From assembly GCA_041659325.1 (NCBI GenBank), contig JBAZYN010000001.1, positions 238,819 through 302,818 on the forward strand: a DNA stretch of 64,000 nucleotides, given 5' to 3'. The position numbers and the translations under genes were made by a program. This DNA comes from Candidatus Shapirobacteria bacterium (GTDB lineage Bacteria; Patescibacteriota; Microgenomatia; UBA12405). The notes beneath the pieces are model-generated. The model saw only the letters and a list, made by a program, of their open reading frames with translations. It was not told where the DNA came from and did not search any database. This document shows, piece after piece, positions 16,380 through 40,834 of the stretch. Positions within the stretch are counted from its first letter, which is position 1. Each line of letters starts with the position of its first letter.

Positions 16380-17138
16380 ATGACACTAAAAAAAATTACC
16401 ATTGGTTTATTTATCCTAATTTTATCCTGCATTAGTTGGCTAATTTTTGAAAACCCGACACGTTTTGAACAAAAATTTTCAAACACCGCCACAATTGTAG
16501 AAAATACCATCGACACCATTGCGCCCAAACCAACCAAAATCCTTAAAGACGGTCTACCAAACAGATATCTGATAGAAGCCCCCTTTGTCGAACAGGCACC
16601 GGAAAAAAACTGGGATCAACCCTGGCAGGATGCCTGCGAAGAAGCCGGGCTTCTCACCGTTGATTACTTTTACAAAAATATTACCCCCTCCCCCCAGGAT
16701 ATTAAGCAATCGATCCTTGACATGATTGACTACGAAAAACTCCAGAAGTGGAAAATAGACATAAATATCAACCAAATGCAACAAATTTCTGAAAAATATT
16801 TGGGCTATAACTCCGAAATTCTTATTAATCCAAGTGTTGAGGAAATAAAAAAATACATATCCAAAAATATTCCCATAGTTGTTCCCGCAAACGGTAAAAC
16901 CCTTTATCGGGAAAACAAACATTTTAAAAATGGTGGTCCGGAATATCACGTTGTTGTAATTCTAGGGTATAACGACGACAAATCTCAATTTACTGTACAC
17001 GATGTCGGTACTCAATTTGGAAAATATTTCCGTTACTCGTATAACCTACTTTTAGAGGCCAATCATAATCTCCCCGAATCAGGGAACAAAAAAGAAATTG
17101 ATTCCGGAAGCAAAGAAATGCTAATTCTGTTAAAATAA
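16380..17138 (+). CDS. Membrane-anchored papain-like (C39-like) peptidase-fold protein
   Basis: An N-terminal TM is present. 'NWDQPWQDACEEAG' is a candidate Gln...Cys pair. 'YHVVVILGYNDD' is a candidate His/Asp pair. The spacing resembles the peptidase_C39-like fold. Confidence 0.4.
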   Translation: MTLKKITIGLFILILSCISWLIFENPTRFEQKFSNTATIVENTIDTIAPKPTKILKDGLPNRYLIEAPFVEQAPEKNWDQPWQDACEEAGLLTVDYFYKNITPSPQDIKQSILDMIDYEKLQKWKIDININQMQQISEKYLGYNSEILINPSVEEIKKYISKNIPIVVPANGKTLYRENKHFKNGGPEYHVVVILGYNDDKSQFTVHDVGTQFGKYFRYSYNLLLEANHNLPESGNKKEIDSGSKEMLILLK

Positions 17139-19617: not shown

Positions 19618-20649
19618 ATGAAGAAAACTTTAACCGTAATTTTCCTCTTTGTTATCTCTTTCATATTAATAATCTCCCTCATTGTCGGTATCTTTATAAA
19701 AAATATATCCGACAAAACCAATCGATCGCTTTCATATTTTTTTCAAACCTATTCAACCGCACAAAAGAATAGACAAAATATCGCTGATGACTCCATTTCA
19801 ATTATGGTTTTTGGCTTGGACAGAAGAGATGATCTTTTAGAAAAAACTGAAGTTACAGACACAATAATTCTGGCAAATATCAACCTTAAAACCGCTAAAC
19901 TTAACCTCATTTCCATCCCCCGCGATCTTTGGTCTTACGACACCAACACAAAAGTCAACTCCATCTATCCTCTGTCCAAAGATAAACAAAATAAATTTCA
20001 ATTTATCCAGAGTGAATTCGAAAAAATCACTGGCCAAAAAATTACCAACACAATTGTAATTTCTACCGACAACCTGATTGACTTCGTACAACTTATCGGT
20101 GGTGTTGATATTTATTTAGAAAACGGGTTCATAGATGACAAATATCCCAATCCTGACTATGTGGCCAATCCTTCTCCCTTAATCCCGATATACAAGACCA
20201 TAAAATTTCCGGCCGGGAAAAACCACCTCGATATATCAAATATAACTGAATTTGTCCGCTCCCGCAAAAATGCCGAAACATCCGCAAATGGCGGCACTGA
20301 TATCGGTCGAATTTTACGCCAACAACTTCTAATTGAAGCCATTATACAAAAAATAAAAAACTCCGATTTCATAAAAAGCCCTAAAAACCTCATCCATCTT
20401 TACAATTTTTGGCGTCAGACTATTGAAACAAATATAAATGACTCCGACATCATTACTTGGGGGCTTCTATTGGACAAAAACGTAAAAAATATAACTATCC
20501 AAAAGACCACTGTCCCAACCGCAGAATACCCCGAAGTATCGGTTATCTACCACCCCTATCGGTTTATAAACACTCAGTGGGTATACATCCCCGAAGATGA
20601 AAATTATAAAAAGTTACACCAATTTATTGCCAAATCAATAGGTGAATAA
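19618..20649 (+). CDS. LytR-CpsA-Psr (LCP) family cell-envelope glycopolymer transferase
   Basis: An N-terminal TM is followed by 'IMVFGLDRRDD...TDTIILANI...LISIPRDL...VNSIY', which is the LCP core. Confidence 0.75.
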   Translation: MKKTLTVIFLFVISFILIISLIVGIFIKNISDKTNRSLSYFFQTYSTAQKNRQNIADDSISIMVFGLDRRDDLLEKTEVTDTIILANINLKTAKLNLISIPRDLWSYDTNTKVNSIYPLSKDKQNKFQFIQSEFEKITGQKITNTIVISTDNLIDFVQLIGGVDIYLENGFIDDKYPNPDYVANPSPLIPIYKTIKFPAGKNHLDISNITEFVRSRKNAETSANGGTDIGRILRQQLLIEAIIQKIKNSDFIKSPKNLIHLYNFWRQTIETNINDSDIITWGLLLDKNVKNITIQKTTVPTAEYPEVSVIYHPYRFINTQWVYIPEDENYKKLHQFIAKSIGE

Positions 20650-21401: not shown

Positions 21402-21887
21402 ATGGAAATCGTCAATCTTTCACCATCAGTTAATACTAGCTCACCAATCAAAAATGAAAAAATGATTACTGTCCCTATATTAGTGATAGTTTTGGCCCTG
21501 TCAATTACCGGAGGTTTTTTTGCCTCACGCTTAAAGCCAATATCTAATTCTCAAAACCAAAACCCCACTCAATCTGCAGATACCGTTGCAAATACCCCGC
21601 CTGACACCGCAGAAAAAGTCGAAGTTGGGAAAATTTACGGTAACCTCGAGAAAAATTTTAAAGACATCGCCACCGGAACACTAGAAAAAGGTAGTATCAA
21701 CGGAGAAGGAACCCATATCCTCAACCGTCCGGGTGGTAAATCACAGAGAGCCTCACTGACTTCCTCGGCCGTAGACCTTGATCTTTTTATCGGCAAAAAT
21801 GTCGAAGTAAGAGGAGAAACCAATTCTTCGACAAAAACCTCCTGGCTAATGGATGTTGGCAGTATTAAGGTACTCGAAAACCAATGA
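21402..21887 (+). CDS. Hypothetical membrane-anchored/secreted protein
   Basis: A TM helix is followed by a low-complexity Thr/Ser/Asn-rich region. No family recognised. Confidence 0.35.
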   Translation: MEIVNLSPSVNTSSPIKNEKMITVPILVIVLALSITGGFFASRLKPISNSQNQNPTQSADTVANTPPDTAEKVEVGKIYGNLEKNFKDIATGTLEKGSINGEGTHILNRPGGKSQRASLTSSAVDLDLFIGKNVEVRGETNSSTKTSWLMDVGSIKVLENQ

Positions 21888-22546
21888 AAGTAATATTCGA
21901 TAATGTTTCCAAAAATTTCGGAATAATTTCCGCCCTAAAAGACATCAACCTAAATATCGATAATGGCGAATTTATTTTTATCGTTGGTCCCTCCGGCGCC
22001 GGAAAATCTACCCTTCTCAAATTAATCCTGGGCCAAATCAGGCCATCATCCGGTTTAATCACCATCGATGATATTGATTTTGGTCATGCCAAAAAAAGCC
22101 AGATAGACAAAATCCGAAGAAAAATAGGCATCATATTTCAAGATTATCAGCTTATTGCCGATAAAAGCGTTGAAGAAAACATCTCCCTCGCCCTTGATAT
22201 AGTCGATTTTCCACCAACCGAAAGACAGTCCAGAATCGATGAAGTAATAAAAAAAGTTAATCTTTCTAGCCGTCGCTTTTTATTCCCCTCACAACTCTCG
22301 GGTGGGGAAATGCAAAGGGCTGCTCTGGCACGAGCTCTTGCCATCAAACCCAGCCTTATCCTGGCCGATGAACCAACAGGCAATCTGGATGTAGAAAACT
22401 CCTGGAACCTAATAAAGCTTCTTAAAGATGTTAACGAACAATACAATACTTCCATAATCATGACCACTCACAATCTCGATATTGTTGACTCCCTAAATAA
22501 AAAAATTATTAAACTCCGCAACGGAGAAATAGAGCAAAAGAAATGA
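21884..22546 (+). CDS. ftsE: Cell-division ABC ATPase FtsE
   Basis: '[14 protein letters not shown]' is Walker A. '[15 protein letters not shown]' is the ABC signature. '[12 protein letters not shown]' is Walker B. Confidence 0.85.
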
Positions 22547-23415
22547 GCACCATAAAAAACACCTGGCATCACATACGTCGGTCACCGTTCCAAAGCCTCA
22601 CCGCAATCCTAATTATGTTTATTACCTTTTTTTCACTTACTACTTTTTTAGTTATAAGCGACGGTATGGGCTCAGTCCTTAGATACTTTGAGACAAAACC
22701 CGAGGTGACCATATATTTGAAGGACGGACTGGACAAAAATACCATGGATAATCTTCAAAAAGAATTAGCAAATTACCAAAACGTTAAGGAGATAAAATTT
22801 ATATCCAAAGAAAAGGCTCTATCAATTTACAAGGAACAAAACAAATCAAACCCTATGTTGACAGAAATGGTAACCGCTAGCATCCTCCCCGCATCTTTCG
22901 AGGTCTCGGTATCCGATCCTTCCGTCTTGGAACAAATTGCTCAAAATTTTTCTGCCAAAACCAACGTCGTCGACGAAATAATTTACCAAAAAGACATGAT
23001 TACTTCACTTCTTAATTGGACCAATATTATCCGAAAAAGCGGCATCATAATAGTCTCTATCACGGCAATAATCTCCTTTTTCGTCACCTCAGTAATTATC
23101 GGTATGAAAATTACCAATAGAAAAGAAGAAATTCATATTAGTCGTCTGCTTGGAGCCTCAAAGCATTATGTTAAAAAATCATTTCTATTGGAAGGTATTT
23201 TTTACGGATTTTTTGGTAGTTTAACCGGCGGACTAATCAGTCACCTTCTTTTATATAAATTCACCCCCCAATTTAACACCTTTTTCCAACCAATTATCTT
23301 CATAAGAAATGACTATACTCTCTACGGCCTAATCCTCTTGATCGAAATATTCTTGGGCATGATTATCGGATACACCGCTAGTTGGTTTGGTACCAAAAGA
23401 TACATAAAATTCTAA
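22543..23415 (+). CDS. ftsX: Cell-division permease FtsX
   Basis: The protein has four TM segments with a large first extracytoplasmic loop. It overlaps ftsE as ATGA. Confidence 0.75.
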   Translation: MSTIKNTWHHIRRSPFQSLTAILIMFITFFSLTTFLVISDGMGSVLRYFETKPEVTIYLKDGLDKNTMDNLQKELANYQNVKEIKFISKEKALSIYKEQNKSNPMLTEMVTASILPASFEVSVSDPSVLEQIAQNFSAKTNVVDEIIYQKDMITSLLNWTNIIRKSGIIIVSITAIISFFVTSVIIGMKITNRKEEIHISRLLGASKHYVKKSFLLEGIFYGFFGSLTGGLISHLLLYKFTPQFNTFFQPIIFIRNDYTLYGLILLIEIFLGMIIGYTASWFGTKRYIKF

Positions 23416-23423
23416 GTTCGTCT

Positions 23424-24539
23424 ATGCAAATAAAAGCCTTAATATTTGGCGTATTTTTTATTATTATTTACTCTTTAAATTTTATCCCCAAAACTTTTGC
23501 CGCTTGTTCGGATGGTCGATGTGACAATCCGGAAGAATATGATAACTATATAAAAGAACTGGGGGATAAAGTTGTAGACCTTTCAAAGGCCAAAGACACT
23601 CTGGTCAACCAAATCAGCTATCTAAACTCTCAGATTCAACTTACCTTAGTCAAAATTACACAAACTGAAAACTCAATTAATACCCTGGAAAAAGAAATTG
23701 ACTCGCTTACCATAAAAATCGACAATCTCGACGTATATCTTAACCAACTCTCCTCAGCCTATATCCAACAAATTAACCAAAATTACCGGCTTCAGCGACG
23801 AAATTCTCAGCTAGAATTTTTTCTAAACGGCAATTTTAATGGTCTTTTGCAACAATACAAATATATTGCTTCTGTCCAAAAAAGCAGTCAGGAAACTTTA
23901 ATCAACATCGAAACGGTCCGGACCAACTATGATCTCCAAAAAGTCGCCAAAGAAAAGAAACAGGAAGAGCTAGAACTACTTCGAAAGACTCTTGCTACCC
24001 AAAAAATCAGTCTAGCTGGCCAAAAAACCACCAAAACCGGATTACTGGAAATTACAAAAAACGACGAGGCAAAGTATCAATCACTTAAAAAAGCCGCCGA
24101 AAACGAATTAAGCTCACTTTTAAAGGCCAAATTTACGGGTAAGCGGAATGTTAAAAAAGGAGAAGCGCTAGGCACTATGGGTAATACCGGATATTCTTTC
24201 GGGGATCATCTCCATTTCGGGTTATATGAACTCCACGAAGAAGATTTGAATAAGTGGGTTTACGCCAATGATATTGACCCATCTTCATACATGGACAACC
24301 ACAGAAAACCCATGGATGATCCGATTGAAATTACACAAGGTAGAGGTAATACTAAATACTCATACCTCTATTCAGACCGTTTCCACCATGGAATTGATAT
24401 GGTATCCAGTAATAAAACAATCAGGGCAGTCAATGACGGTGTTGCTTATTTCTTCAGAAACGCTGGCAGCAGTCTTGGTAACCATGTAAAGCTATTTCAC
24501 CCGGACGGCAAGATGACTCTCTACCTGCATATGCAATAG
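23424..24539 (+). CDS. Coiled-coil M23 (LytM-type) metallopeptidase, EnvC-like, with permuted motif order
   Basis: An N-terminal TM is followed by a long coiled coil. The C-terminal region carries 'GTMGNTGYSFGDHLHFGLY' (the HxH motif) before 'HHGIDM...VNDGVAYF...LGNHVKLFHPDGKMTLYLHM' (the HxxxD half). This order is reversed relative to canonical M23. The ORF track starts it at 23382, but an ATG at 23424 avoids overlap with ftsX. Confidence 0.7.
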   Translation: MQIKALIFGVFFIIIYSLNFIPKTFAACSDGRCDNPEEYDNYIKELGDKVVDLSKAKDTLVNQISYLNSQIQLTLVKITQTENSINTLEKEIDSLTIKIDNLDVYLNQLSSAYIQQINQNYRLQRRNSQLEFFLNGNFNGLLQQYKYIASVQKSSQETLINIETVRTNYDLQKVAKEKKQEELELLRKTLATQKISLAGQKTTKTGLLEITKNDEAKYQSLKKAAENELSSLLKAKFTGKRNVKKGEALGTMGNTGYSFGDHLHFGLYELHEEDLNKWVYANDIDPSSYMDNHRKPMDDPIEITQGRGNTKYSYLYSDRFHHGIDMVSSNKTIRAVNDGVAYFFRNAGSSLGNHVKLFHPDGKMTLYLHMQ

Positions 24540-24540: not shown

Positions 24541-25167
24541 TTAAAATCCTCTGGCCAATTTTCGGAGATACAAAGCCAAAACACCACCTGATACTAATAG
24601 AGCAGTTTTTACGGGTAATGAATCATCGCCAGTCGTCGGAACCATTTTTTTAGCCACATAATAGGAAGCGTTGTCCTTATCATTTACATTGCCGGAAACG
24701 ACATTTACCTTGTTGGTTAATTTCATAGCAGTCACTCCGATTGATTCAACACCGCTAATCTTGGCTCGGATCACGTATGTTTTGCTTTGTCCAGGCAATA
24801 ATTTTTCCAAATCCCAGTTAATCGTATTTGAATTTTTATCAACTGATCCTGGGCTAAAAACTAACGATAGATATTGCGGTAATACGTCAGAAAAGGTCAT
24901 ACCGGTTAGATCTTCATTACCGGCATTTGTAACCACTATCTCAAATTCAATGGTATCTCCGTCCACAAAAGTATATTTCGAGCTTGGTATATTATCAAAC
25001 AGAATATTTTCCTTCATAAGTCTAATCTTCTTATCGATGGTCACTATTTTTTTCAGATCGTTTTGAGAATAATACTGCGCCCCAACACTCCCGGGATTAA
25101 AAAAACTGAAAACTAGACCAAAAGCCGCTGCTAGAATAAAACCGATTTTAATGTTTTTGTGTTCCAC
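24541..25167 (-). CDS. Secreted DUF11 ('conserved repeat domain') surface protein with C-terminal sortase-type sorting signal
   Basis: A signal peptide is followed by 'TFVDGDTIEFEIVVTNAGNEDLTGMTFSDVLP', which is DUF11-like. The C-terminus reads 'VPTTGDDSLPVKTALLVSGGVLALYLRKLARGF', which is an XPXTG-like motif followed by a hydrophobic stretch and a basic tail. Confidence 0.55.
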   Translation of the reverse strand: MEHKNIKIGFILAAAFGLVFSFFNPGSVGAQYYSQNDLKKIVTIDKKIRLMKENILFDNIPSSKYTFVDGDTIEFEIVVTNAGNEDLTGMTFSDVLPQYLSLVFSPGSVDKNSNTINWDLEKLLPGQSKTYVIRAKISGVESIGVTAMKLTNKVNVVSGNVNDKDNASYYVAKKMVPTTGDDSLPVKTALLVSGGVLALYLRKLARGF

Positions 25168-25250: not shown

Positions 25251-25976
25251 ATGCATAAAAAACTTCTCAAAGAACTATCAATATTTTTTCCATGCTACAA
25301 CGAGGAAAAAAACATATCAGATACGGTTGACAAAGCAGTCCCCGTTTTGAAAAAAATATCCGACCAGTGGGAAATTATATTGGTTAATGACGGTTCAAAA
25401 GATAAAACGCCCCAAGTTCTTGAAACTATCAAAAAAAAATACCCCCAAAACACTTCTATTATCACTCACAATCCCAATAGGGGATATGGGGCCGCTTTTA
25501 AAAGCGGAGTCTATAACTCAAGATACGAGTGGATTGCCTTTACAGACGCAGACGGTCAATTTGATTTTTCCGAAATTACTAAACTGATCAAAAAACAACA
25601 GACTACCGGTGCTGATTTAGTTATAGGATATTATTTAGGGAGAAAAGTCCCGTTTTACCGAATCTGGGGATCTTCTCTTTGGCAAATCGCTGTATTCATT
25701 CTTTTCGGTCTTAAAGTAAAAGATATCGACTGCGGCTTTAAACTCATTCGGAAAAAAGTAATCGACACCATTCCGAAGCTAGAGGCCGAAAGAGGGCCGT
25801 TTATATCAAGTGAATTCCTAATTAAAGCAAAAAAATCCGGTTATAAAATAGTAGAAATCGGAGTAAGTCATTTTAGTCGCACGGCCGGTGAAGCAACCGG
25901 AGCCAAACTAAACGTCATTCTGGCCGGATTCAAGGATCTGTTCCGGCTCTGGTACAAAATAAATTTCCAAAAATGA
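25251..25976 (+). CDS. Polyprenyl-phosphate sugar synthase (GT2; DPM1/ArnC/CsbB-like), cassette A
   Basis: 'FFPCYNEEKNI' is followed by 'IILVNDGSKDKT', then 'FTDADGQF' (DxD), and a C-terminal amphipathic/TM anchor. Confidence 0.7.
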   Translation: MHKKLLKELSIFFPCYNEEKNISDTVDKAVPVLKKISDQWEIILVNDGSKDKTPQVLETIKKKYPQNTSIITHNPNRGYGAAFKSGVYNSRYEWIAFTDADGQFDFSEITKLIKKQQTTGADLVIGYYLGRKVPFYRIWGSSLWQIAVFILFGLKVKDIDCGFKLIRKKVIDTIPKLEAERGPFISSEFLIKAKKSGYKIVEIGVSHFSRTAGEATGAKLNVILAGFKDLFRLWYKINFQK

Positions 25977-27469
25977 CCTTGTTTCGAAGAATCCTTGGTT
26001 ATGCTAAAACTGAAAAGACCCTAATTCTCATCCTTTTTCTTGCCGCCTTTTTCAGACTTTATGATGTTGGCGGCTATATGGAATTCTTGGGTGATCAGGG
26101 AAGGGACATGGTAATTGTCCGAGATTTCCTTAAAAACGGTAATCTTTTTTTTATCGGGCCTCAAACCAGCATCGGTAACATGTATCTCGGCCCGTTCTAC
26201 TACTACCTAATTGCCCCATCACTGCTTTTATCCGGATATAACCCCACAGGACCATCAATATTTATCGCCATTTTATCTATATTAACCGTTTTTCTGATTT
26301 ATAAAATTTCAAATAAATGGTTTAGCAAAAATACCGCCATTATTGCCTCAATTTTGTATTCTATTTCTCCGGTTGTAATTAAATACTCCAATTTCTCCTG
26401 GAATCCAAATGTAATGCCTTTATTTTCCCTGCTTTTTGTATATTTTATGGTTGAAGGTCTTACTCAAAAAAAATACCTCTATTTTATCTACGCATCTCTT
26501 TCCTATATTATGGCCATTAATTCCCATTATCTAGCCCTCCTTCTGCTCCCTCTTGCAGCAGTCTTGTGGTTTATCCACTTGTTCAAAACAAAGAAGATCT
26601 CCAAAGAGTTCTTCACTTTTACCATATACGCGATAGTAATTTTTGTGATTTCCCTGACTCCTCAGATATTATTTGACCTGAAACATCAAAACCAAAACTT
26701 AAACGCTTTAGTCAAGTTCTTTACCAACAGGGAAACCACTGTCAATCTAAAGGCTTACAAGACCCTCCCTAGCCTGATTCCTCTGACTAATCAGATCAAT
26801 TCCCGTCTCCTCCTGGGAAAAAACGAAACATTATCCCTACCGCTAACCGTCTTTATTTTTGTAGGCTCATTTCTGGTTTTTTTCAAAAAAAATACCAAAA
26901 GAACCTATTTCGTTGCCCTATTTCTGTGGTTACTTTTTGGCATCGGCGGGTTGGGACTGTACAAACAACATATATACGACCACTACTTTGGCTTTATCTT
27001 TCCGGTCCCATTTATTATTGTAGGCATAGTTTTAAGCTCGCTATTTGAATTCAACCGTTTGACCAAAATTGTCGGCTCGGCCCTGCTTCTCATTTTAGTT
27101 TATCTATCCGTTCTTGAAACACCCATCCAATACCCTCCAAACAATCAATTGCAAACTACACAAACTATCGTCAAATCAATTCTCGCTGAATCAAATAATC
27201 AACCTTTTAATTTTGCCCTTCTGGCAAAACAAAATTATGACCCGCCTTATAGGTATTATTTTTCCGAATATAACTCACAAATCTATCTTCTTCAAGATAA
27301 GATTACCGACCAACTTTTTGTAGTTTGCGAACCATGGCAGATAGACTGCCAACCGATAAACAACCCCGAATGGAATATTGCCGCCTTTGGGTGGGCAAAA
27401 ATTGACAAACAATGGCAAATAAACGGAATAACAATATTTAAGCTAACTCATAATGTTCCGAAAAATTAA
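25973..27469 (+). CDS. ArnT-like GT-C membrane glycosyltransferase, cassette A copy 1
   Basis: 'LGDQGRDMVIVRDFLKNGNLFFIGPQTSIGNMYLGPFYYYLIAP' can be compared with the ArnT 'DEARYAEI..M...GDW..P...G.PYFEKPPL.YW' loop. The protein is polytopic. Confidence 0.55.
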   Translation: MTLFRRILGYAKTEKTLILILFLAAFFRLYDVGGYMEFLGDQGRDMVIVRDFLKNGNLFFIGPQTSIGNMYLGPFYYYLIAPSLLLSGYNPTGPSIFIAILSILTVFLIYKISNKWFSKNTAIIASILYSISPVVIKYSNFSWNPNVMPLFSLLFVYFMVEGLTQKKYLYFIYASLSYIMAINSHYLALLLLPLAAVLWFIHLFKTKKISKEFFTFTIYAIVIFVISLTPQILFDLKHQNQNLNALVKFFTNRETTVNLKAYKTLPSLIPLTNQINSRLLLGKNETLSLPLTVFIFVGSFLVFFKKNTKRTYFVALFLWLLFGIGGLGLYKQHIYDHYFGFIFPVPFIIVGIVLSSLFEFNRLTKIVGSALLLILVYLSVLETPIQYPPNNQLQTTQTIVKSILAESNNQPFNFALLAKQNYDPPYRYYFSEYNSQIYLLQDKITDQLFVVCEPWQIDCQPINNPEWNIAAFGWAKIDKQWQINGITIFKLTHNVPKN

Positions 27470-28778
27470 TTCAAATGTTATCTTGCTGATAATTTTGTTG
27501 ATTTCCCTCTGCTTCAGAATCTATAAGCTCAATGAACTTTATAATTTTGACTGGGACCAGGAAGACGATGCCCAGAAAGTGACCGAAATGATCACCAGTC
27601 ATAAGCCCAGGTTGATAGGGCCAAGAGTTGCAAACGACAATGGATTCTTTGTCGGCCCATTTCATTATTATTTTTTAGTCCCTTTTTACCTTATTACCAA
27701 CAATAATCCAATCGCCGGTGCCTATGCATCAATATCTATAGGGTTAATTACGACTCTGGTTATATATGTAGTCTCTCAAAAAATATTCGGTGAAAATACC
27801 GCCCGTCTTTCCGCCCTAATTTATTCCCTACTACCATCGATTACCTCCTGGAACGTCATGTACACCGCTCCGCTATCACTTATTATATTTTATCTGTGCC
27901 ACCAACTTATTTCCGGAAAGAATAATCTTTTTCCTTTGTTGATTTTTACATATTCATTCTCAGCCACCACCCACCTTGTTCCCGTCTCTCTTTTTATCCC
28001 CATTATTATTTCTCTTTTGCTAGCCGATAAAAAACCTTCCTCAAAACAAATTATTTTAAGCCTGATACTTTCAATAATCCCCCTCATTCCCTTGATTATT
28101 TTTGACCTGAGACACCAATTTCTTAATATTAAAAACTTAATTAATTTTATATCCGTATCAAAAAATAATGACTATCCTCCGTATTTATTTTTAAGAAGTT
28201 ACTGGCGCTCAATCAATCTACTTTTTATTAAAATCCATTATTTAATAATTGTTGAAAGAATAGTGATAATTACGGCTGCTTTGACCTCCGTTTTTCTACA
28301 AAACAATAAAAAATATAAAATATTTATTTTCTCCTGGCTTTTGACCCCAATACTTATTTTGTCTTTTTATCGGGGAAATATTCCCGAATACTATTACGGA
28401 TCTTCCAACATTATAATCCCTATCCTCTTGTCTTTCCTGATTTCCAAAATATTGTCAGCAAAATTGTTGACCTTTTTTTCAGTCGCTTTCCTGACATTCC
28501 AAATTATAAATTTCCCTTCCACTCCGACTGGCATCACCCTAAAGGACAAAACGGAAGCAGTGTCTTTTTTAATTAACCAAAACCGGGATCCGATTTTTAA
28601 TGTCTCCTACGACCTCCCCTTAGGTTTTGATAACGGCTATGCATATCTTTTTCGTTATTTTGGCAAAGAACCACAGAACACCCCCGCTGGCCACTTGTAC
28701 TCCATTAGCCTTTCAACACGTCCCTCGACTGGGGAAATTGTTTATACAAACAACACTCTCAGCATTGTTCGAAAATAA
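27453..28778 (+). CDS. ArnT-like GT-C membrane glycosyltransferase, cassette A copy 2
   Basis: 'WDQEDDAQKVTEMITSHKPRLIGPRVANDNGFFVGPFHYYFLVP' belongs to the same family as the 25973 gene. It overlaps the upstream gene by 17 nt. Confidence 0.5.
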   Translation: MFRKINSNVILLIILLISLCFRIYKLNELYNFDWDQEDDAQKVTEMITSHKPRLIGPRVANDNGFFVGPFHYYFLVPFYLITNNNPIAGAYASISIGLITTLVIYVVSQKIFGENTARLSALIYSLLPSITSWNVMYTAPLSLIIFYLCHQLISGKNNLFPLLIFTYSFSATTHLVPVSLFIPIIISLLLADKKPSSKQIILSLILSIIPLIPLIIFDLRHQFLNIKNLINFISVSKNNDYPPYLFLRSYWRSINLLFIKIHYLIIVERIVIITAALTSVFLQNNKKYKIFIFSWLLTPILILSFYRGNIPEYYYGSSNIIIPILLSFLISKILSAKLLTFFSVAFLTFQIINFPSTPTGITLKDKTEAVSFLINQNRDPIFNVSYDLPLGFDNGYAYLFRYFGKEPQNTPAGHLYSISLSTRPSTGEIVYTNNTLSIVRK

Positions 28779-30325
28779 TGTCTACCATAAAAAAATTAAT
28801 AATCCCAATTCTCCTTCTCATTTTTAGCTTCTGGCAACTAAGCTCACTATCTGACAAAAGATGGCCAACCTCACACGATGGCGTTTTTCATGTCATTCGG
28901 ATCAGAGAATTTTTCTACGAGCTGTCTTCCGGCCACTTTCCTGTTCGTTGGGCCAGTAGGTTAGACAACGGCTATGGTATCCCATTGTTCAACTACATCT
29001 ACCCCGGCCCATACCTCCTCTCATCACTACCCATGTCATTTGGCATAAATGAGGTAAATTCTTATAAAATTACCATTTTTTTTGCATATTTTTTAGCGAT
29101 TTCCGGTTTCTTCTATCTATTTCGCCAAACCAACCGCTTTTTGGCCTTAATCGGTTCACTGATATATGGATTAACTCCATACGTTTTTCTAAATATTTTT
29201 GTAAGAGGGGCCCTGGGAGAAACAATCTCCATGAGTTTCATGCCCTGGGCTCTTGTAGGCATCCTTGAACGCAGAAAAATACTCACCGTTCTATCGCTCT
29301 CATTCATTCTAATCAGCCACAATTTCCTGGGAATTCTTTTTCTCTTTTTTTTGATTCTCTTTTTACTTTGGAATAAAAGACTAAACATTTTTACCGTTAC
29401 AACTATCCTATTGTCTCTTGGTCTTTCCGCTTTCTTTTTGCTACCAATGATTTTCGAAAGGCAATATATTGTTTCAGGCGCTAACAACAATTTTACCTTT
29501 AATTATCAGGAACATTTTCTTTACCTACGCCAGTTATTATATGGAAAATGGGATTACTGGTATTCCATCCCTGGGCCAAACGATGGCATGTCTTTTCAGC
29601 TTGGTTTTGCCAACATTATCATCCTGATACTATCAATCTCCACAATAATTTACAGAAAGAAAATTAACAATCTGTTTTATTTAACCGTTATTTATATTGG
29701 ATCCTGCATCCTAACTCAGGGATTTTCATTTCCGCTTTGGAAACTAATCAGACCTCTCCAAATAGTCCAATTCCCGTGGCGTTTTTTGTTTATAACCACT
29801 ATAATTTCTCCACTTTTATTTTTCGAAAACGCAAGTTATTGGATCAACAAAAAACGGACCATTACTCTCGCCGTTTCAATCGTAATTATCATCTTCGCCC
29901 TAATAAACGTCAGAAACTACCGCCGCCCTATGGATTTCCAATCACCGGAAAAATATAATGTTTATCTTGACCTTTATACCAACAAAACCACCACCGCCAT
30001 CCGCGAAGAAATATCACCCAAGTGGACTCTCAAAGAAAAATTCGCCGGCGACATTTCAAGCAGATTCACTATTTTCCCCGCTAATACAAATCTTTTTACT
30101 ATTCGCAAGAATTATTTTCCAACATGGAAACTTATCGATCTTTCAAAAAACATTGTTATTCCGATTGAGCCTGATGCCGATGGAAATATTACCGCCAAAC
30201 TCTCGGAGGGAACCTACCTGCTCAAAAACGGACAAACCCCCCTGGAGATAATTTCGAATTATATTAGCTTATTCTCCCTATTAGTTCTATTCGCCCCCTC
30301 ACTTCTCCGGGTAGCCAATAGATAA
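28778..30325 (+). CDS. YfhO-like GT-C membrane glycosyltransferase, cassette A
   Basis: The N-terminal loop is 'HDGVFHVIRIREFFYELSSGHFPVRWASRLDNGYGIPLFNYIYPGPY'. The C-terminal soluble region carries 'YFPTWKLIDLSKN...' and then a terminal TM. There are five further paralogs in the window. Confidence 0.5.
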   Translation: MSTIKKLIIPILLLIFSFWQLSSLSDKRWPTSHDGVFHVIRIREFFYELSSGHFPVRWASRLDNGYGIPLFNYIYPGPYLLSSLPMSFGINEVNSYKITIFFAYFLAISGFFYLFRQTNRFLALIGSLIYGLTPYVFLNIFVRGALGETISMSFMPWALVGILERRKILTVLSLSFILISHNFLGILFLFFLILFLLWNKRLNIFTVTTILLSLGLSAFFLLPMIFERQYIVSGANNNFTFNYQEHFLYLRQLLYGKWDYWYSIPGPNDGMSFQLGFANIIILILSISTIIYRKKINNLFYLTVIYIGSCILTQGFSFPLWKLIRPLQIVQFPWRFLFITTIISPLLFFENASYWINKKRTITLAVSIVIIIFALINVRNYRRPMDFQSPEKYNVYLDLYTNKTTTAIREEISPKWTLKEKFAGDISSRFTIFPANTNLFTIRKNYFPTWKLIDLSKNIVIPIEPDADGNITAKLSEGTYLLKNGQTPLEIISNYISLFSLLVLFAPSLLRVANR

Positions 30326-31506
30326 ACCAATATACCAATCAGCACCGCCCTACCCATCAGAAGTATTTGCCCGGACATATTTTGAATACTTAACGGAAGT
30401 TGGGACATTTCTCTTGCCGCCAAAAAAATCGCATAGTGGAGCGTTGGGTCAAACGAAAATAAAACACAAAACCATCCAAATATAGCTGCCAAATATACCA
30501 TCATCGATTCATTTTTTATTGCCCAGATGACCATCCACGGCATCAACCAAACCAACCATTGAGGGTGAAAATGGGTAAATGCCAAACTGGATAATAACCC
30601 GGCTCCAAAGGCAGTCAAGAAACTAATATTATTTTTCCAAAACAACAACAAAATTACGGAATAAGCAATAAAAAACCACGGAATAGCTGTACCTCCCGAA
30701 ATAGCGATACCGGCATAGGTACTCTTGTTGATTTGATCAGCAAACAAAGAAAAGGCTCTATAGGCCGGAGATCCAAGATACGGCAGTATTCCCAAAAAGT
30801 AAACCAACCCTCCGCAAATACCCGGGGCAATACCTCTCCAAAAATTCTTATTCCTCAAGATACTCTCCATCACCACAATTGGGATCAAAATCAATCCTAT
30901 TGGCTTAATCAAAGCTGAAATCGCCACCATAGCCGCCGTCAGGCAATATTTTTTGTTTTTTCTCGCCAAAAGTGCCAAAACTAGCCAAAAAGCAATCATA
31001 ATATCCACCTGACCCATCATCGAACCCACATAAATTCCCAGTGGATTAAATATCCACAAAATTTGTGCCAGTCGTTTTTTCTTTTGATCAATAAAAAATT
31101 TAGCCAACATAAACACGATCGCCAGATCGGCCACGATCATCGGAAGTTTGTACAACAAAAGCACCCAGTTTACTGACACACTATGAAGTATATCCCAATT
31201 AGTATTCACGATTCCTTCGGCAGTATCCAATATCAACCCCTTAAACGGTAAATAAAACAGCGATGGTAATATATAAGCCAGTGGTTGATAGTTAAAAATC
31301 ATTTTACTCGGCAAATACAAGACACTGCCGTCTTCATTAAACCTAACCGCCTGGTCATAAAACGACCAGATTTTCCCCTCGCCGGCAATATATTTTCCCG
31401 CCAAGGCAAATGCACCCAAATCCGAATGGTAGGTAGTAATAGCCAAAAAAACTCTCAGCGCGATACCGACCACCAACAGGATATAGAAAATTCTATCTTT
31501 AATCAT
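30259..31506 (-). CDS. DUF2029/GT87-like GT-C membrane protein (putative mannosyltransferase-type)
   Basis: It is polytopic. 'FNPLGIYVGSMMGQVDIMIAFWLVL' is shared with the paralog at 47033..48817. The ORF track extends to 31650, but the internal ATG at 31506 avoids a 100-nt overlap with the opposing GT2 gene. Confidence 0.45.
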   Translation of the reverse strand: MIKDRIFYILLVVGIALRVFLAITTYHSDLGAFALAGKYIAGEGKIWSFYDQAVRFNEDGSVLYLPSKMIFNYQPLAYILPSLFYLPFKGLILDTAEGIVNTNWDILHSVSVNWVLLLYKLPMIVADLAIVFMLAKFFIDQKKKRLAQILWIFNPLGIYVGSMMGQVDIMIAFWLVLALLARKNKKYCLTAAMVAISALIKPIGLILIPIVVMESILRNKNFWRGIAPGICGGLVYFLGILPYLGSPAYRAFSLFADQINKSTYAGIAISGGTAIPWFFIAYSVILLLFWKNNISFLTAFGAGLLSSLAFTHFHPQWLVWLMPWMVIWAIKNESMMVYLAAIFGWFCVLFSFDPTLHYAIFLAAREMSQLPLSIQNMSGQILLMGRAVLIGILVYLLATRRSEGANRTNRENKLI

Positions 31507-31551
31507 ATAGCTGAAGTATAACTCGAAAAGAGATTCTAGTATAATTAACCA

Positions 31552-32316
31552 ATGACAACAACCATTTCGATCATCATTCCCTGTTACAACGAAGAAGAAA
31601 ATCTTAAAAGGGGAGTCCTGGATGAGGTCAATGACTTTCTCCAAACTCAAAAGTTTAAATGGGAAGTTTTAATTTGTAACGATGAATCTACCGACAATAG
31701 CCTGAAATTGGTCCGTGAATTTGTCAATAAACACTCGGGGTTCCGTGTTTTAGACCTCCCTCATGGCGGTAAGCCTTCGGCCGTATGGGGCGGAATAAAA
31801 GAAGCTCAATATCCGCTTGTTATTTTCACCGACATGGACCAATCGACTCCCTTAAAAGAAATCAACAAACTTCTGCCATTTTTTAAGTCATATGATGTTG
31901 TTATTGGTTCCAGAGGTTCGCATAGGGAGGGAAATACATTTTTAAGAAAGCTGGGCTCTAAAATATTTCTTTTAATCAGAAAACTCATTTTACTTCACCA
32001 AATTAGCGACACTCAATGTGGTTTCAAGGCAATGAAAATTGATGTTGCCAAGAAACTATTTCCCAATCTCCAGTTCTTTAAAGAAAAGACAGGAAAGAAG
32101 GGGTGGCGAGTTTCTGCCTACGACGTTGAACTACTCTTTATGGCAGAAAAATGGGGATATTCGATTAAAGAAATTCCGGTTGAATGGAAAAATGAAGACA
32201 CCAGCACGACCAAGGGAGATCTAAATGCCCGTTACAAGAAAGAATCAATCCAAATGGCACAAGAAATTTGGAGGGTTATGAAAAACAATCTGAAGGGTGT
32301 ATATGACCAAAATTAG
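31552..32316 (+). CDS. Polyprenyl-phosphate sugar synthase (GT2; DPM1/ArnC/CsbB-like), cassette B
   Basis: 'IIIPCYNEEENL' is followed by 'VLICNDESTDNS', then 'FTDMDQST' (DxD). 'QCGFKAM' is typical of the DPM1/GtrB family. Confidence 0.7.
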   Translation: MTTTISIIIPCYNEEENLKRGVLDEVNDFLQTQKFKWEVLICNDESTDNSLKLVREFVNKHSGFRVLDLPHGGKPSAVWGGIKEAQYPLVIFTDMDQSTPLKEINKLLPFFKSYDVVIGSRGSHREGNTFLRKLGSKIFLLIRKLILLHQISDTQCGFKAMKIDVAKKLFPNLQFFKEKTGKKGWRVSAYDVELLFMAEKWGYSIKEIPVEWKNEDTSTTKGDLNARYKKESIQMAQEIWRVMKNNLKGVYDQN

Positions 32317-33820
32317 AGGGATTCTTCTATACCGATTTTTAACAGTCTCTCTGATTATAGGACTATATTTAGCAACTCGTTTCCAAAATCTCACTTTTAT
32401 TCCTGTATTTGGGGATGAAGCCATATACCTACGCTGGAGCCAAATTATAAAAAATGTTGAAACCCTTAGGTTTATTCCTCAAACTGATGGAAAACAACCA
32501 CTATTTATGTGGATCACGGTGATCTTTTTCAAATTTATCAAAGATCCCCTGGCTGCGGGAAGGACTTTATCGGTACTATCCGGGTTCGGAACGATGATTA
32601 TCCTTTTTGTCACATATTCTATTATTGAAAATTATCATTCCAACAATACCCATCCCCTCAAATTTATTTTCGAATCAATTAACAATCATTTTTTCGTTTC
32701 TCTTATACCGTGCATCATCTACATTTTTCTGCCTTTCTCGTTTTTTTTCGACAGGATGGCCCTACCTGATAATCTCCTTTCATTTTTTGGCATCTTATCT
32801 CTCTTTTTAAGTCTACTACTTTCCAAATTTAGACGCTTAGACCTAGCCTTGCTCCTCGGTTTCGCTCTCGGACTGTCCTGGCTTACCAAATCACCGGCCA
32901 TATATTTTATTGTCCTGTCGGTACTGACTTATGTTTTTTATCTTTCCAAAAACACAAAAACAATAATTCTGCCTGTCATTTCAGTTGTTCTTGCCTTCAT
33001 CATCTACAACATCCTCCGACTTGGTCCGCAATTTCATATGATTGCCTTAAGAAACAAAGACTACGTCTGGACTCTTTCGGAAATTATTCGGCATCCACTC
33101 GATCCTTTGGTTCCACACCTGTGGGATGTTGTACACATATTTTCTCTATATATCTCGATCCCGCTATTCCTAATTGTTTTCCTCTTTTTACAAAATAAAT
33201 TTAAACGCGACCAACTAGTTGTTTTTTTCTGGTTTATATTACCTCTGATTGCCTCTGCCGCCATGTCAAAAGTTTTTACAGCCAGATATATTCTCTTCAC
33301 CCTACCACCATTAATTATTCTTATTTCTCGTGGCGCACAAAGCTTCGTTAGTAATAGCCGTTTTAAAATATTAACCTTTTTGCTGTTGTTTACAATAAAT
33401 TTATCCACCATCTATCAACTATCCTACAAGCCCTTCTATGCCAAACTACCTTCCACCGAACAGGGCTATCTCTCAGATTGGACATCGGGGTGGGGAATAA
33501 ATGAAGCGGCAATATTCTTGAGAGAAAGAGCCAAAGTTTCTAACGTAATTGTTGGGACCGAAGGTTATTTTGGCACTTTACCCGACGGTCTCCAGATCTA
33601 CACCCAAAACACTTCTCAGTTAACCGTCTTTGGTGTCGGATTGGGTTTTAATTTTATTCCGGAAAAACTTATTGATGCCAAAAATCACGGCGATGAAGTC
33701 TATCTGCTCATAAACAAATCCCGAAATAACCTCCATTTTATGGAAATGGAAAAGATAAAACTAATAAAAAGTTTCCCTAAACCACAAAACGACTCTCTCG
33801 ATCTATACCAAATAACCTAG
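32297..33820 (+). CDS. ArnT-like GT-C membrane glycosyltransferase, cassette B copy 1
   Basis: 'VFGDEAIYLRWSQIIKN...' follows an N-terminal TM. The protein is polytopic and has the same architecture as the gene at 25973. Confidence 0.5.
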   Translation: MYMTKIRGILLYRFLTVSLIIGLYLATRFQNLTFIPVFGDEAIYLRWSQIIKNVETLRFIPQTDGKQPLFMWITVIFFKFIKDPLAAGRTLSVLSGFGTMIILFVTYSIIENYHSNNTHPLKFIFESINNHFFVSLIPCIIYIFLPFSFFFDRMALPDNLLSFFGILSLFLSLLLSKFRRLDLALLLGFALGLSWLTKSPAIYFIVLSVLTYVFYLSKNTKTIILPVISVVLAFIIYNILRLGPQFHMIALRNKDYVWTLSEIIRHPLDPLVPHLWDVVHIFSLYISIPLFLIVFLFLQNKFKRDQLVVFFWFILPLIASAAMSKVFTARYILFTLPPLIILISRGAQSFVSNSRFKILTFLLLFTINLSTIYQLSYKPFYAKLPSTEQGYLSDWTSGWGINEAAIFLRERAKVSNVIVGTEGYFGTLPDGLQIYTQNTSQLTVFGVGLGFNFIPEKLIDAKNHGDEVYLLINKSRNNLHFMEMEKIKLIKSFPKPQNDSLDLYQIT

Positions 33821-33821
33821 T

Positions 33822-35054
33822 ATGAAAAAAATTGGATTTTATTTCCTGATACTTGGTATTTCAGTCATCTATCTTTTGCTAAGAATAAACCGTCTAAATG
33901 AAAATATTGAGTTTAGGCTCGATCAGGGTATTCACTTGCTGGAAACATACCAAATGGTTACTAGCAAAAAAATCAGCCTAATCGGCCCGATGGTCACATC
34001 AAAAAGCCGCGACGGACGAAACTTCTATATCGGTGGAAATTATTACTATGCCCTGGCAATACTTGGCATAGTTAGTGAGTGGGATCCCGTAAAAATAACC
34101 GCTTTCTATAATTTTATCGAACTTACTTTCATAATCTTTTTTATATTTTGGCTTCGTTCAAGATTTAACCCCAATTCCGCCATCATTATCTTTGTTTTTT
34201 TAACCTCATTCTGCTATCTGATCACTCATAGCCGTTTTTTTTGGAACCCGCATTTCCTTATTCCTCTGGGGATATTAGTCACATACTTTATCGATCAATT
34301 TTACCAAAGGCAACAAAACATCTTTTTGCTATTGGCCGCAATAACACTAGGAAACGCCGTGTCATTTCACTACTCCGCGCTAGTATGGACCATTCCGATA
34401 GTCGCTTTCATAATTTTTACAAAATCCAAATCGATCTGGCAAATTCCACTATTCTTATTAGGAACAACGGTTGGAGCCTTACCAATAATAATCTTCGAGT
34501 TAAGACATAATTTTTACAACATAAGAACAATTTTTTTTATTTTTACTCATTTTGAAGAAAACAGGGGATTAACTCCACACTATTTCGTATATCCCACCCT
34601 TATCTTTATTTTATGGTTTTTTGCCTATTTCCAAAACAAATTCAAAGTCAAAAAATACTTTATTATCGCTTCTACCTTTTTCTTATTTCTAATAGGTTTA
34701 CTTATTCCTCCGGTAAGTCCGCTCGACAACCTTTCCGGCTGGGATTACCCATCTCAAAAAAGGGTTGTAGACATTATCACAAAAAACATCTGCCCTGAAA
34801 ATTATAATATCGCCTCCACTGTCGGTGGTGATACCAGATCTTATGACATTAGATATCTGCTTACCATCCGCCACTGCCCACCCAAGGAGGTAGAAACATA
34901 CTCTGACAATCAAACTCTGTTTCTGGTTGCGCCGCCTGACCGGCCTCCGGAGACAGAAAAGGTTTGGGAAGTATCTTCTTTTAAACCGTTTAAAGTTACA
35001 AATCAGCAGGAAATCAATAACCAAATTATTCTTTACCGGCTCGATAAAACCTAA
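33822..35054 (+). CDS. ArnT-like GT-C membrane glycosyltransferase, cassette B copy 2
   Basis: 'RLDQGIHLLETYQMVTSKKISLIGPMVTSKSRDGRNFYIGGNYYYALAIL' can be compared with the 27453 gene's 'LIGPRVANDNGFFVGPFHYYFLV'. Confidence 0.5.
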   Translation: MKKIGFYFLILGISVIYLLLRINRLNENIEFRLDQGIHLLETYQMVTSKKISLIGPMVTSKSRDGRNFYIGGNYYYALAILGIVSEWDPVKITAFYNFIELTFIIFFIFWLRSRFNPNSAIIIFVFLTSFCYLITHSRFFWNPHFLIPLGILVTYFIDQFYQRQQNIFLLLAAITLGNAVSFHYSALVWTIPIVAFIIFTKSKSIWQIPLFLLGTTVGALPIIIFELRHNFYNIRTIFFIFTHFEENRGLTPHYFVYPTLIFILWFFAYFQNKFKVKKYFIIASTFFLFLIGLLIPPVSPLDNLSGWDYPSQKRVVDIITKNICPENYNIASTVGGDTRSYDIRYLLTIRHCPPKEVETYSDNQTLFLVAPPDRPPETEKVWEVSSFKPFKVTNQQEINNQIILYRLDKT

Positions 35055-35077
35055 GCCATTCATAGTAAAATATAATC

Positions 35078-36793
35078 ATGTTGTCCAAATTAACTAAAAA
35101 ACGATTCTTTTGGCCAATCTTAGTTTTCATCTGTACAATTCCCGCCTTTTCCTTTCTTCTCAAACCAGGTTACTACATCATGCATGATGACATGCAGCCC
35201 ATCCGACAACTAAGCTTTGAGCAATGCTTAAAAGATGGGCAGATACCGTGCCGCTGGTCACCTTATCTCGGTTACGAATATGGCTATCCACTTTTCAACT
35301 ATTACCCCGCACTACCCTATGCCGTTGGTCAAGTATTCAGAGTTTTGGGATTTTCTTTTTTGACTTCGATTAAATTAACCGCCATCCTTCAATTTATATT
35401 CTCTGCTCTCTTCATCTACGTATTTGCCAAAGATATATTTGGTAAATTAGGAGGATTTTTATCATCTGTTTTTTATACATATGCTCCCAATCACGCCTTA
35501 AATATTTATGTCCGCGGGGCAATGAACGAAGCTTGGGCATTGGTATTTCTTCCCCTAATTTTGTTTTTTGCTCATCGGGCAATAACAAAAAACAAAACTT
35601 GTTATTTCATCGGTTTATCGCTTTCTCTTTCCTTTTTAATGCTATCCCACAATCCCACAGTTTTGACCTTTATCCCGATTCTGGTTACCTTTTGTCTTTT
35701 TTGGATATACAAATCAAAACATTTCCGGCCGGAATATTTTCTGAAATTAGCTTTAAGTGGGTTATTTGCCATATGTCTTTCCGCCTTTTTCACTCTTCCT
35801 GTTCTCTTCGAATCAAAACTAGTCCAAATAGAAACAATGTTTACCAATTATTATCACTACACTGCCCACTTTGTTTCTATTTTCCAATTATTTATCAGTA
35901 ATTTCTGGGGAGATGGAGGCTCAATTTGGGGTCCCAATGACGGAATGTCATTTATGGTCGGATATCTCCACTGGTTTTTGCCTGTGCTTATCGTTTTTGC
36001 CGTTGTTTTTATTACTTATAAAACAAAGAAAATAGATACTGTTTACATTTTTACCACTATTCTTATATCCACGGGACTATTCACCACCTTCATGTCCCAC
36101 GAACGCTCGACCTTCCTATGGCAGTTATTTCCCGTAATTCAAAAAGTTCAATTCCCCTGGCGGTTTTTAAGTCTCACCTCTCTTTTCTCTTCCATTTCTA
36201 TCGGAATTATTCCTCTAATACTTTCAAAATATATAAAACTCAAAACGGTTGTTATTATCACCGGCACAATTGCACTTATTACCTTTGCAATTAATTTCAA
36301 CTATTTTCATCCCGTTAGAAGCGGACCAGTATCCGATTTGGAAAAATTCTCAGGTGAAAGTTGGCGTCTACAAACTACCGCAAGCATTTACGACTATTTA
36401 CCGAAAACAGCCTCGATGGCGGCAAAAAAACCAGCTACCAAATTTATTGACTCAATAAACCCCCCATCCGATTACATTATCACTGGACAAAAACAGGGGA
36501 CAGATTGGCTATTTTTCAACCTTATCCTTCAAAAAGATTCTGAAATTATCATTTCCCAACTCGCTTTCCCAAACTTTGTCATTACCGACAACAACCGCCA
36601 AATTAATTACACCATTGATCCTGAACTTGGTCGCATGGTTGTCAACCTCGAAACGGGAAATCATCAACTATATATTAAACTTAAAAACACACCTATAAGA
36701 ACTGTTGGCAACATAATATCGCTTTTAAGTTGGTTATCTGTTCTCGTTTACCTTTCTCTGAATCTATGGAAGAGATCAATATCGAAGAAATAA
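35078..36793 (+). CDS. YfhO-like GT-C membrane glycosyltransferase, cassette B
   Basis: 'MHDDMQPIRQLSFEQCLKDGQIPCRWSPYLGYEYGYPLFNYYP' is the family N-terminal loop. The C-terminal domain and a terminal TM 'RTVGNIISLLSWLSVLVYLSL' are present. Confidence 0.55.
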   Translation: MLSKLTKKRFFWPILVFICTIPAFSFLLKPGYYIMHDDMQPIRQLSFEQCLKDGQIPCRWSPYLGYEYGYPLFNYYPALPYAVGQVFRVLGFSFLTSIKLTAILQFIFSALFIYVFAKDIFGKLGGFLSSVFYTYAPNHALNIYVRGAMNEAWALVFLPLILFFAHRAITKNKTCYFIGLSLSLSFLMLSHNPTVLTFIPILVTFCLFWIYKSKHFRPEYFLKLALSGLFAICLSAFFTLPVLFESKLVQIETMFTNYYHYTAHFVSIFQLFISNFWGDGGSIWGPNDGMSFMVGYLHWFLPVLIVFAVVFITYKTKKIDTVYIFTTILISTGLFTTFMSHERSTFLWQLFPVIQKVQFPWRFLSLTSLFSSISIGIIPLILSKYIKLKTVVIITGTIALITFAINFNYFHPVRSGPVSDLEKFSGESWRLQTTASIYDYLPKTASMAAKKPATKFIDSINPPSDYIITGQKQGTDWLFFNLILQKDSEIIISQLAFPNFVITDNNRQINYTIDPELGRMVVNLETGNHQLYIKLKNTPIRTVGNIISLLSWLSVLVYLSLNLWKRSISKK

Positions 36794-39878: not shown

Positions 39879-39896
39879 TAAAATAACCTATCTCTT

Positions 39897-40832: not shown

Positions 40833-40834
40833 CC

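Follow-up and report, generated by a model that had tools for sequence, protein, structure and literature searches.

Circularly permuted order of the M23 peptidase domain in the product of the third gene of an ftsE-ftsX operon from Candidatus Shapirobacteria

In bacterial division, cleavage of the cell wall under the control of FtsEX is a central step that is under active study. FtsEX is known to partner with EnvC, which combines an inactive LytM domain with a restraining arm, and with hydrolases bearing CHAP or NlpC/P60 domains. This report concerns a gene at 23424..24539 (+) of a 64,000-nucleotide stretch of DNA from Candidatus Shapirobacteria bacterium (GCA_041659325.1; contig JBAZYN010000001.1, positions 238,819 to 302,818 of the forward strand), the whole of which is referred to as the window. 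It occupies the third position of an ftsE-ftsX operon in the genome of a member of the Microgenomates (Candidate Phyla Radiation, CPR; Patescibacteria), and profile matches and alignments show that the C-terminal region of its product is one whole zinc peptidase domain of the M23 (LytM/lysostaphin) type in circularly permuted order.

EnvC, known from Escherichia coli, Vibrio cholerae and Pseudomonas aeruginosa (PDB 6TPI, 8TZL and 8I6S), is comprised of an N-terminal anchor or signal, a long antiparallel coiled coil and a C-terminal LytM domain, and serves as a partner of FtsEX; in these respects the protein described here resembles it. The LytM domain of EnvC follows the canonical order but lacks catalytic activity, having lost its Zn ligands (PMC11627006), and this activator of AmiA/AmiB has a restraining-arm helix that separates its coiled coil from LytM (PMC11627006; PMC7668044). 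In contrast, the protein from the window bears a permuted domain with an apparently intact site and, as modelled, a helix running straight into that domain. PcsB from Streptococcus pneumoniae (PDB 4CGK), CwlO from Bacillus subtilis and RipC from Mycobacterium/Corynebacterium present a coiled coil followed by a competent hydrolase domain, an arrangement also shared with this protein, but catalysis in these proteins falls to a cysteine peptidase domain of the CHAP or NlpC/P60 type instead of an M23 metallopeptidase, and no permutation of these domains relative to the family norm has been reported.

In the following, the half of the M23 domain that carries HxH is termed B and the half that carries HxxxD…YxH is termed A, such that the permuted order is BA and the canonical M23 order is AB. 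Residue numbers count from 23406, i.e., they are 6 higher than those counted from the ATG at 23424. The features of the operon, with helices taken from AlphaFold 2 (AF2) models, are:

21884..22546, + strand: ftsE, ABC ATPase (Pfam ABC_tran, E 1.5e-36)
22543..23415, + strand: ftsX, permease with an extracellular domain (Pfam FtsX_ECD at aa 54-142, E 3.6e-18; FtsX at aa 168-285, E 7e-14)
23424..24539, + strand: gene for the coiled coil and predicted permuted M23 hydrolase (open reading frame, ORF, of 371 aa from ATG 23424)
23424..23504, + strand: N-terminal hydrophobic signal peptide or membrane anchor (MQIKALIFGVFFIIIYSLNFIPKTFAA), read from the sequence; AF2 helix 2-25
23529..24122, + strand: long antiparallel helical hairpin (coiled coil), AF2 helices 42-132 and 144-239
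24129..24293, + strand: M23 half B (canonical C-terminal half), from the VKKGEALGTMGNTGYSFGDHLHF strands to DPSSYM; aligns to 3slu 301-328
24207-24215, + strand: HxH motif, HLH, in half B
24294..24308, + strand: five-residue joint DNHRK from canonical C-terminus to canonical N-terminus, between the conserved DPxxY(L/M) and (W)PM…ITQ
24309..24536, + strand: M23 half A (canonical N-terminal half), PMDDPIEITQGRG…HHGID…GNHVKLFH…MTLYLHMQ; Pfam profile 1-53, 3slu 233-295
24384-24398, + strand: HxxxD motif, HHGID, in half A
24522-24530, + strand: YxH motif, YLH, with the catalytic His at 24528-24530
24537-24539, + strand: stop codon of the hydrolase gene

The three genes are tightly packed, with the 3' end of ftsE sharing 4 nt with the start of ftsX. 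The open frame of the hydrolase gene occupies 23382..24539 (+) and reaches back to a TTG at 23382, and its likely start is the ATG at 23424 (MQIKAL…), 8 nt downstream of the ftsX stop, since the resulting 371 aa fits the length of the closest homologs (371-373 aa). Near the end of the helical hairpin is the conserved motif LLxxTKNDExxYQxL.

The canonical M23 order is HxxxD, YxH and HxH, in contrast to the HxH, HxxxD and YxH observed here. An earlier note, made from the nucleotide letters and their translations, had reported that GTMGNTGYSFGDHLHFGLY…IDPSSYM precedes HHGIDM…VNDGVAYF…LGNHVKLFHPDGKMTLYLHMQ, that the protein ends right after the second segment, and that all Zn ligands are present. 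This description is confirmed. Its strings, which lie in the + strand ORF 23382..24539, and its coordinates are exact, with V(KKGEALG) at the start of 24150..24539 and the stop codon at its end; VKKGEALGTMGNTGYSFGDHLHFGLY…IDPSSYM, from 24150, lies upstream of …HHGIDM…GNHVKLFHPDGKMTLYLHMQ, which the stop codon follows; the chain ends two residues past the last His; and the HxH, HxxxD and YxH His, all five catalytic/Zn residues, are in place.

Profile searches place the same segments in the M23 family. The match to Pfam Peptidase_M23 (PF01551) scores 59.3 bits (E 4e-16; cut-off 28.7) and falls into two stretches, and the C-terminal 53 residues of the protein correspond to positions 1-53 of the 96 in that profile. 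In the NCBIfam models of M23 enzymes, residues 245-274 are matched by the C-terminal ends and residues 323-377 by earlier parts. When aligned to PDB chain 3slu, residues 79-141 of the domain fall on 233-295 and residues 10-37 on 301-328, such that the start of the domain and the C-terminus of the protein flank one 5-residue loop located directly after the YxH(L) strand. The chain enters at the strand that normally follows the YxH His, passes through HxH, the canonical C-terminus, the joint, the canonical N-terminus and HxxxD, and ends 2 residues past the YxH His. Re-ordering the halves in silico to A+B produced a single Pfam stretch covering 1-89 of 96 with 72 bits, compared to two stretches and 63 bits in the native order. 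The order check against Pfam and PDB, of the kind proposed in the earlier note, spoke in favour of a true circular permutation, with complementary halves in reverse and neither two partial domains nor the standard order, and because these pieces are complementary and non-overlapping they are read as one permuted domain instead of two partial ones. By sequence homology the protein belongs to M23 with what is predicted to be a permuted topology. No description of a permuted M23/LytM domain was found in the literature searched, which leaves out most subscription journals, and circular permutation of the M23 fold is apparently unreported.

The fact that Pfam gives two partial stretches and not one domain would also be expected from a misassembly, a frameshift or a pair of truncated, non-functional M23 remnants. 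The two stretches together make up exactly one profile, however, and the same order, spacing and C-terminus recur in hundreds of independent assemblies (JGI, ENA, NCBI and Logan), where the active-site residues are under strong purifying selection. An artefact or decay of this kind is scarcely credible, and both the misassembly and the two-remnant explanation are rejected as refuted by the conservation data. Among the close homologs listed (56-85% identity), all 120 of 120 carry HxH before HxxxD and end in …LYLH(M/L)Q, and their source names are Shapirobacteria, Woesebacteria, Microgenomates and Patescibacteria. A survey of loci in species-representative genomes by closer homolog alignment, in which 285 stretches encode a relative and 79 loci were kept, yielded 67 BA loci, including those of Collierbacteria, Pacebacteria and Levyibacteriota. 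A search seeded with a second BA subfamily, which carries GYPxCSTGxHLHFEVR and whose named sources are Roizman- and Gottesmanbacteria, returned 117 proteins, each of them BA. A further 50 BA proteins are more distant, one of them named Berkelbacteria and included in a third subfamily ending …TLYGHMID, and a CPR3 protein that was found separately is also BA. Representatives of 50%-identity clusters were searched exhaustively with HMMER, and the best 150 include 53 BA, 61 AB and 16 tandem ABAB proteins, and the canonical order occurs in the same kind of protein in some Patescibacteria, Clostridia and Bacillaceae. The orthologs, to which the earlier note had looked for the same order, do share it, so an assembly problem is ruled out. 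Many species-representative records of metagenome-assembled genomes titled ‘uncultured Gammaproteobacteria bacterium … binchicken/SRP…’ (L003, L005, L008, L009 and others) contain operons of ftsEX and a BA M23 gene with up to 68-69% identity to the query, as do loci titled Shapirobacteria or Woesebacteria; the titles of these records look unreliable.

The genetic context suggested by the earlier note, ftsE, ftsX and a coiled-coil M23 protein, is likewise real and conserved, and the full-length model has its best PDB match in EnvC. Of 66 informative loci, about 60 have ftsE-ftsX directly upstream: 53 are of the type E-X-M, and seven are variants in which ftsX is split or a gene is added (5 of the type E-X-M-M and 2 of the type E-X-X-M), while most of the others are cut contigs. 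Relatives match the Pfam CC_PcsB domain. The distant BA proteins P0197 and P0210 are also encoded next to ftsEX, with the P0197 gene downstream of it and the P0210 gene upstream, a CC_PcsB-CHAP protein being encoded on the far side of the latter ftsEX. In a divergent lineage (L080 4329-8567) the gene for the coiled coil and BA M23 domain is found upstream of ftsE-ftsX, with a CC_PcsB and CHAP protein and an S41 (CtpB-like) protease on the downstream side. In Microgenomates and a number of other CPR lineages, FtsEX seems to have this family as its standard partner. In five loci (L027 2781-3941, L031, L033, L039 and L043), three of which are titled Shapirobacteria, a second coiled-coil protein with a C-terminal cysteine-peptidase domain that is weakly Peptidase_C39_2-like is encoded between ftsX and the permuted M23 gene, and these operons therefore have two candidate FtsEX partners each. 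A stand-alone C39_2 protein is encoded in the window at 16380..17138.

AlphaFold modelling, which the earlier note had recommended, favours a single domain. The 142-residue region, modelled with 41 homologs, is predicted by AF2 to fold as one compact domain (pLDDT 90.9; pTM 0.87), and the strands of this model correspond one-to-one with the canonical M23 sequence elements, each of which is used once. The full-length model (pLDDT 83) displays an anchor helix, the hairpin of helices 42-132 and 144-239, and a β domain from residue 242. In a Foldseek search of the PDB, its best match is EnvC in the FtsE/FtsX/EnvC complex from V. cholerae (8tzl_E, E 1.3e-5), and EnvC bound to the periplasmic domain of FtsX (6tpi_A) is matched as well. 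No restraining-arm helix is seen in the AF2 model, with helix 2 predicted to end at 239 and the first strand of the domain to start at 242. The three-dimensional equivalence of this domain to the M23 fold is a prediction that draws on sequence profiles, secondary structure and the confidence of AF2. The joint between the halves, 5 residues long in this protein, accommodates inserts of up to about 40 aa in other subfamilies; those of 20-40 residues in other Microgenomates subfamilies are in some cases Cys-rich (…FESTSCDDV… or …WxTGCGGDPxG…) and might provide an additional element held together by disulfides.

The M23 fold is classed in SCOP as a duplicated hybrid motif. Given this fold class, for which a discussion of HABAS is related to the duplicated-motif view (PMC11515920), the M23 halves would be semi-autonomous, and the mere 5 residues that join them in this protein might favour a domain-swapped dimer, in which half B pairs with half A from a second chain and the active site is formed only on dimerisation. 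This arrangement is very improbable. AF2 is able to fold the single chain into a compact domain with a pTM of 0.87, the joint inserts of 20-40 residues are tolerated without other change, as would be expected of a surface loop joining adjacent termini, and EnvC is a monomer when bound to the FtsX dimer (PMC11627006).

The permuted domain likely originated by tandem duplication of an M23 domain, after which the leading A half and the trailing B half were lost. Tandem A-B-A-B proteins account for the 16 noted among the best 150 representatives (P0158, P0159, P0161, P0173, P0212, P0218, P0266 and others), seven of which are short (280-350 aa) and others much longer, and the permuted query covers the B1-A2 junction of tandem proteins in a single alignment. 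The short tandem proteins were considered as direct ancestors and rejected, their N-terminal region being too short for a coiled coil, and they therefore show merely that the intermediate type exists. A neighbour-joining tree of the re-ordered domains (95 columns, no bootstrap) gathers 48 of the 53 BA representatives in one clade that is free of true AB proteins.

The BA order also occurs in phages. Foldseek comparison of the domain model to BFVD returned whole-domain matches in the same order to virion proteins of approximately 1000 aa (TMq 0.57, 0.51 and 0.39). The virion structural protein of Cyanophage S-TIM66 (L087 1393-4449), presumed to be a relative of the matched S-TIM5 protein, bears GNTGGSTGPHLH before HQGIDL and LAHL, followed by a Phage_lysozyme2 domain, and P0256 likewise combines a BA M23 domain with Phage_lysozyme2. 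Upstream of its B half, the S-TIM66 protein contains a degenerate A-like piece that ends YVHQ at residue 449 and could be the relic of an A-B-A-B intermediate. These lysins share with the protein described here the location of the HxH segment before HxxxD and YxH, but their domain is embedded in proteins of 700-1000 aa, is followed by the lysozyme domain instead of being C-terminal, and is accompanied by neither a coiled coil nor FtsEX. The FtsEX partner is thus not the only protein with the BA topology. Two further phage sequences that seemed BA-like by tblastn coverage, the ‘glycoside hydrolase’ of Vibrio phage vB_pir03 and the fecal phage scaffold MT838990, were found on inspection to have the canonical A-then-B order and were set aside.

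Conservation of the active site was surveyed in 39 diverse BA proteins, down to 24% identity, and in 333 full-length BA proteins. In the former set H268, H270, D331 and H375 do not vary, and at least 90% of the proteins have H327; in the latter, all five catalytic/Zn residues are kept in at least 320 of 333, a part of the remainder being noise of the regular-expression search, and the last His is followed by 2 further residues in 274 proteins, by 3 in 41 and by 4 in 10. The contrast that the earlier note drew with the dead site of EnvC is thus borne out, inasmuch as the catalytic residues are here both intact and conserved. Zn-dependent peptidoglycan endopeptidase activity of the permuted domain is a prediction from its sequence.

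Genes of the window provide some indication of the type of cell envelope. A sortase (2475..3200, -), a LytR-CpsA-Psr (LCP) ligase (19618..20649, +) and a DUF11/CLIPPER surface protein (24541..25167, -) are encoded in it. The gene for the DUF11 protein is convergent with the M23 gene, and its product ends in VPTTG, a hydrophobic stretch and a basic tail, which resembles a sortase signal. The co-occurrence of the sortase, the LCP ligase and this sortase-signal-like protein points to a single-membrane (Gram-positive-type) cell wall.

Taken jointly, an anchor, an EnvC/PcsB-like hairpin and a permuted M23 domain probably constitute an active endopeptidase gated by FtsEX, as in PcsB, CwlO and RipC. 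The two halves would fold into one M23 active site, and the enzyme would act as a septal peptidoglycan endopeptidase gated by ATP-driven movements of FtsEX that are relayed via the coiled coil, for which PcsB, CwlO and RipC in other single-membrane bacteria offer a model. Several observations weigh against this interpretation. The Foldseek search of the PDB with the domain-only model retrieved no M23 structure, nor a half domain, its best match being NusG (2xhc, E 0.79), although this result appears to be attributable to the dependence of Foldseek on residue order and as such supports neither side. The first His is lost in a few BA proteins, e.g., P0206 and P0433, and some members carry the public annotation ‘murein hydrolase activator EnvC family’, making a role as activator possible. 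Finally, 5 of the 53 BA representatives (P0197, P0206, P0210, P0149 and P0256) fall outside the main clade of the tree, which bears on the number of origins.

Some of these observations are shared with an alternative in which the protein is an EnvC-like activator, the groove of its permuted LytM domain binding and activating a separate amidase or autolysin under the control of FtsEX, as do EnvC, NlpD and DipM. Its architecture and top structural match are those of EnvC, the NCBIfam EnvC model gives a weak match over the coiled coil, relatives are also named ‘septal ring factor EnvC’ in some sources, and the Zn-binding His missing from a few members is the first of the site. The match to the EnvC model (NF008644) reaches only 25.8 bits against a cut-off of 270, however, and is confined to the coiled coil, such that the protein falls outside that family. 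Activators of the EnvC type have degenerate sites (W320/V324/Y401 in E. coli; PMC11627006), whereas the five residues here are invariant or nearly so at approximately 30% identity, and the AF2 model is devoid of a restraining-arm segment. The wall genes of the window point to a single-membrane organism, in which the FtsEX partners themselves are hydrolases, and no amidase was detected among the approximately 30 window ORFs scanned with Pfam, which are a part of the ORFs of the window and do not extend to the rest of the genome. An activator role is therefore regarded as unlikely, and an FtsEX-gated endopeptidase is preferred.

How such an endopeptidase might be held inactive is suggested by the path of its chain. 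In the model, the permutation shifts the junction with the coiled coil from the canonical N-terminal strand to the strand adjacent to the catalytic His and positions the end of coiled-coil helix 2 approximately 2 residues from the first strand of the domain and beside the active-site loop, and because the coiled coil is joined there, it is proposed to substitute for the restraining arm of EnvC: the coiled coil itself might conceivably occlude or distort the cleft in the off state. A bolder interpretation would have the permutation as a functional redesign, as opposed to a neutral rearrangement, in which the FtsEX-driven coiled coil acts directly on an active M23 site as its lever or lid, controlling the septal hydrolase in a large part of the CPR, with the BA topology reached or spread independently in phage virion lysins. 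The chain would then enter beside the catalytic His, with the free C-terminus fixed 2-4 residues after it. This redesign is put forward tentatively, as a possibility that is itself rather doubtful.

The significance of these findings extends to the biology of division and to annotation. The same ABC machine and coiled coil are attached at another point to an apparently intact M23 domain, and this arrangement can therefore be used to test how motion of the coiled coil leads to activation of a hydrolase; if the redesign were true, it would represent the gating of a metallopeptidase without a restraining arm. The protein is also a candidate division enzyme for the CPR, the division and wall biology of which are almost unknown. 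Its relatives occupy a blind spot of annotation, being labelled variously as EnvC, CwlO-like or hypothetical; with two Pfam fragments, no Foldseek match in the PDB and mixed labels, the domain is mis-described by automated pipelines. Lastly, the M23 permutation adds a further example to the study of protein evolution, together with candidate intermediates in the tandem M23 proteins and in the phage protein with a vestigial extra half.

Two other features of the window are recorded here. A very large paralog array of approximately 25 ORFs of 410-594 aa, on both strands, occupies about 37 kb (25973..63384); several of the ORFs scanned match PMT_2 or GT87, both GT-C membrane glycosyltransferases, and genes of the GT2 and GT1 types occur among them. 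At 3922..6102 (+) a class II aminoacyl-tRNA synthetase (tRNA-synt_2 with an OB anticodon domain) is extended at its C-terminus by a B3_4 domain (aa 564-717), which looks like an unusual fusion.

Among described systems, there is a functional parallel with PcsB, CwlO and RipC, in which FtsEX exerts direct control over a hydrolase, and with which the present system also has in common wall genes of the single-membrane type and, in its relatives, matches to CC_PcsB. A secreted or anchored coiled coil with a hydrolase domain is present, and coupling to FtsEX is indicated by genetic linkage, while the CHAP or NlpC/P60 domain typical of that group is lacking. The protein thus probably works like the members of the PcsB/CwlO/RipC group without belonging to it by its catalytic domain. 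Circular permutation of a wall-hydrolase domain has a precedent in NlpC/P60 proteins (YaeF/poxvirus G6R and LRAT-like; Anantharaman and Aravind 2003, as cited in PMC6403190), where the order of the catalytic residues is likewise swapped, but these differ in having a papain-like fold with Cys/His catalysis and no link to FtsEX. The NlpC/P60 families were the only other permuted wall hydrolases found in the literature searched, subscription journals not being covered. Similar in composition are the canonical CC_PcsB and M23 proteins encoded next to ftsEX in Bacillaceae, Clostridia and some Patescibacteria (L076 from Bacillus salacetis, P0447 and P0451), which have the same gene order, a coiled coil and an intact M23 site, and which share the MGNTGYSFGxHLHF motif, the WP…ITQGYG first strand and the coiled-coil motif KxxLLxxT+xxExxY. 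They differ in that A precedes B, in that they end at an (N/D)PxxYL helix and not after the catalytic His, and in the linker of approximately 15-45 residues that leads from the coiled coil to the domain, compared to a 2-residue turn in the permuted protein. These canonical proteins are probably the ancestral form, and the protein described here is a widely conserved topological variant of a known module, in which FtsEX is paired with a coiled-coil hydrolase, here of the M23 family.

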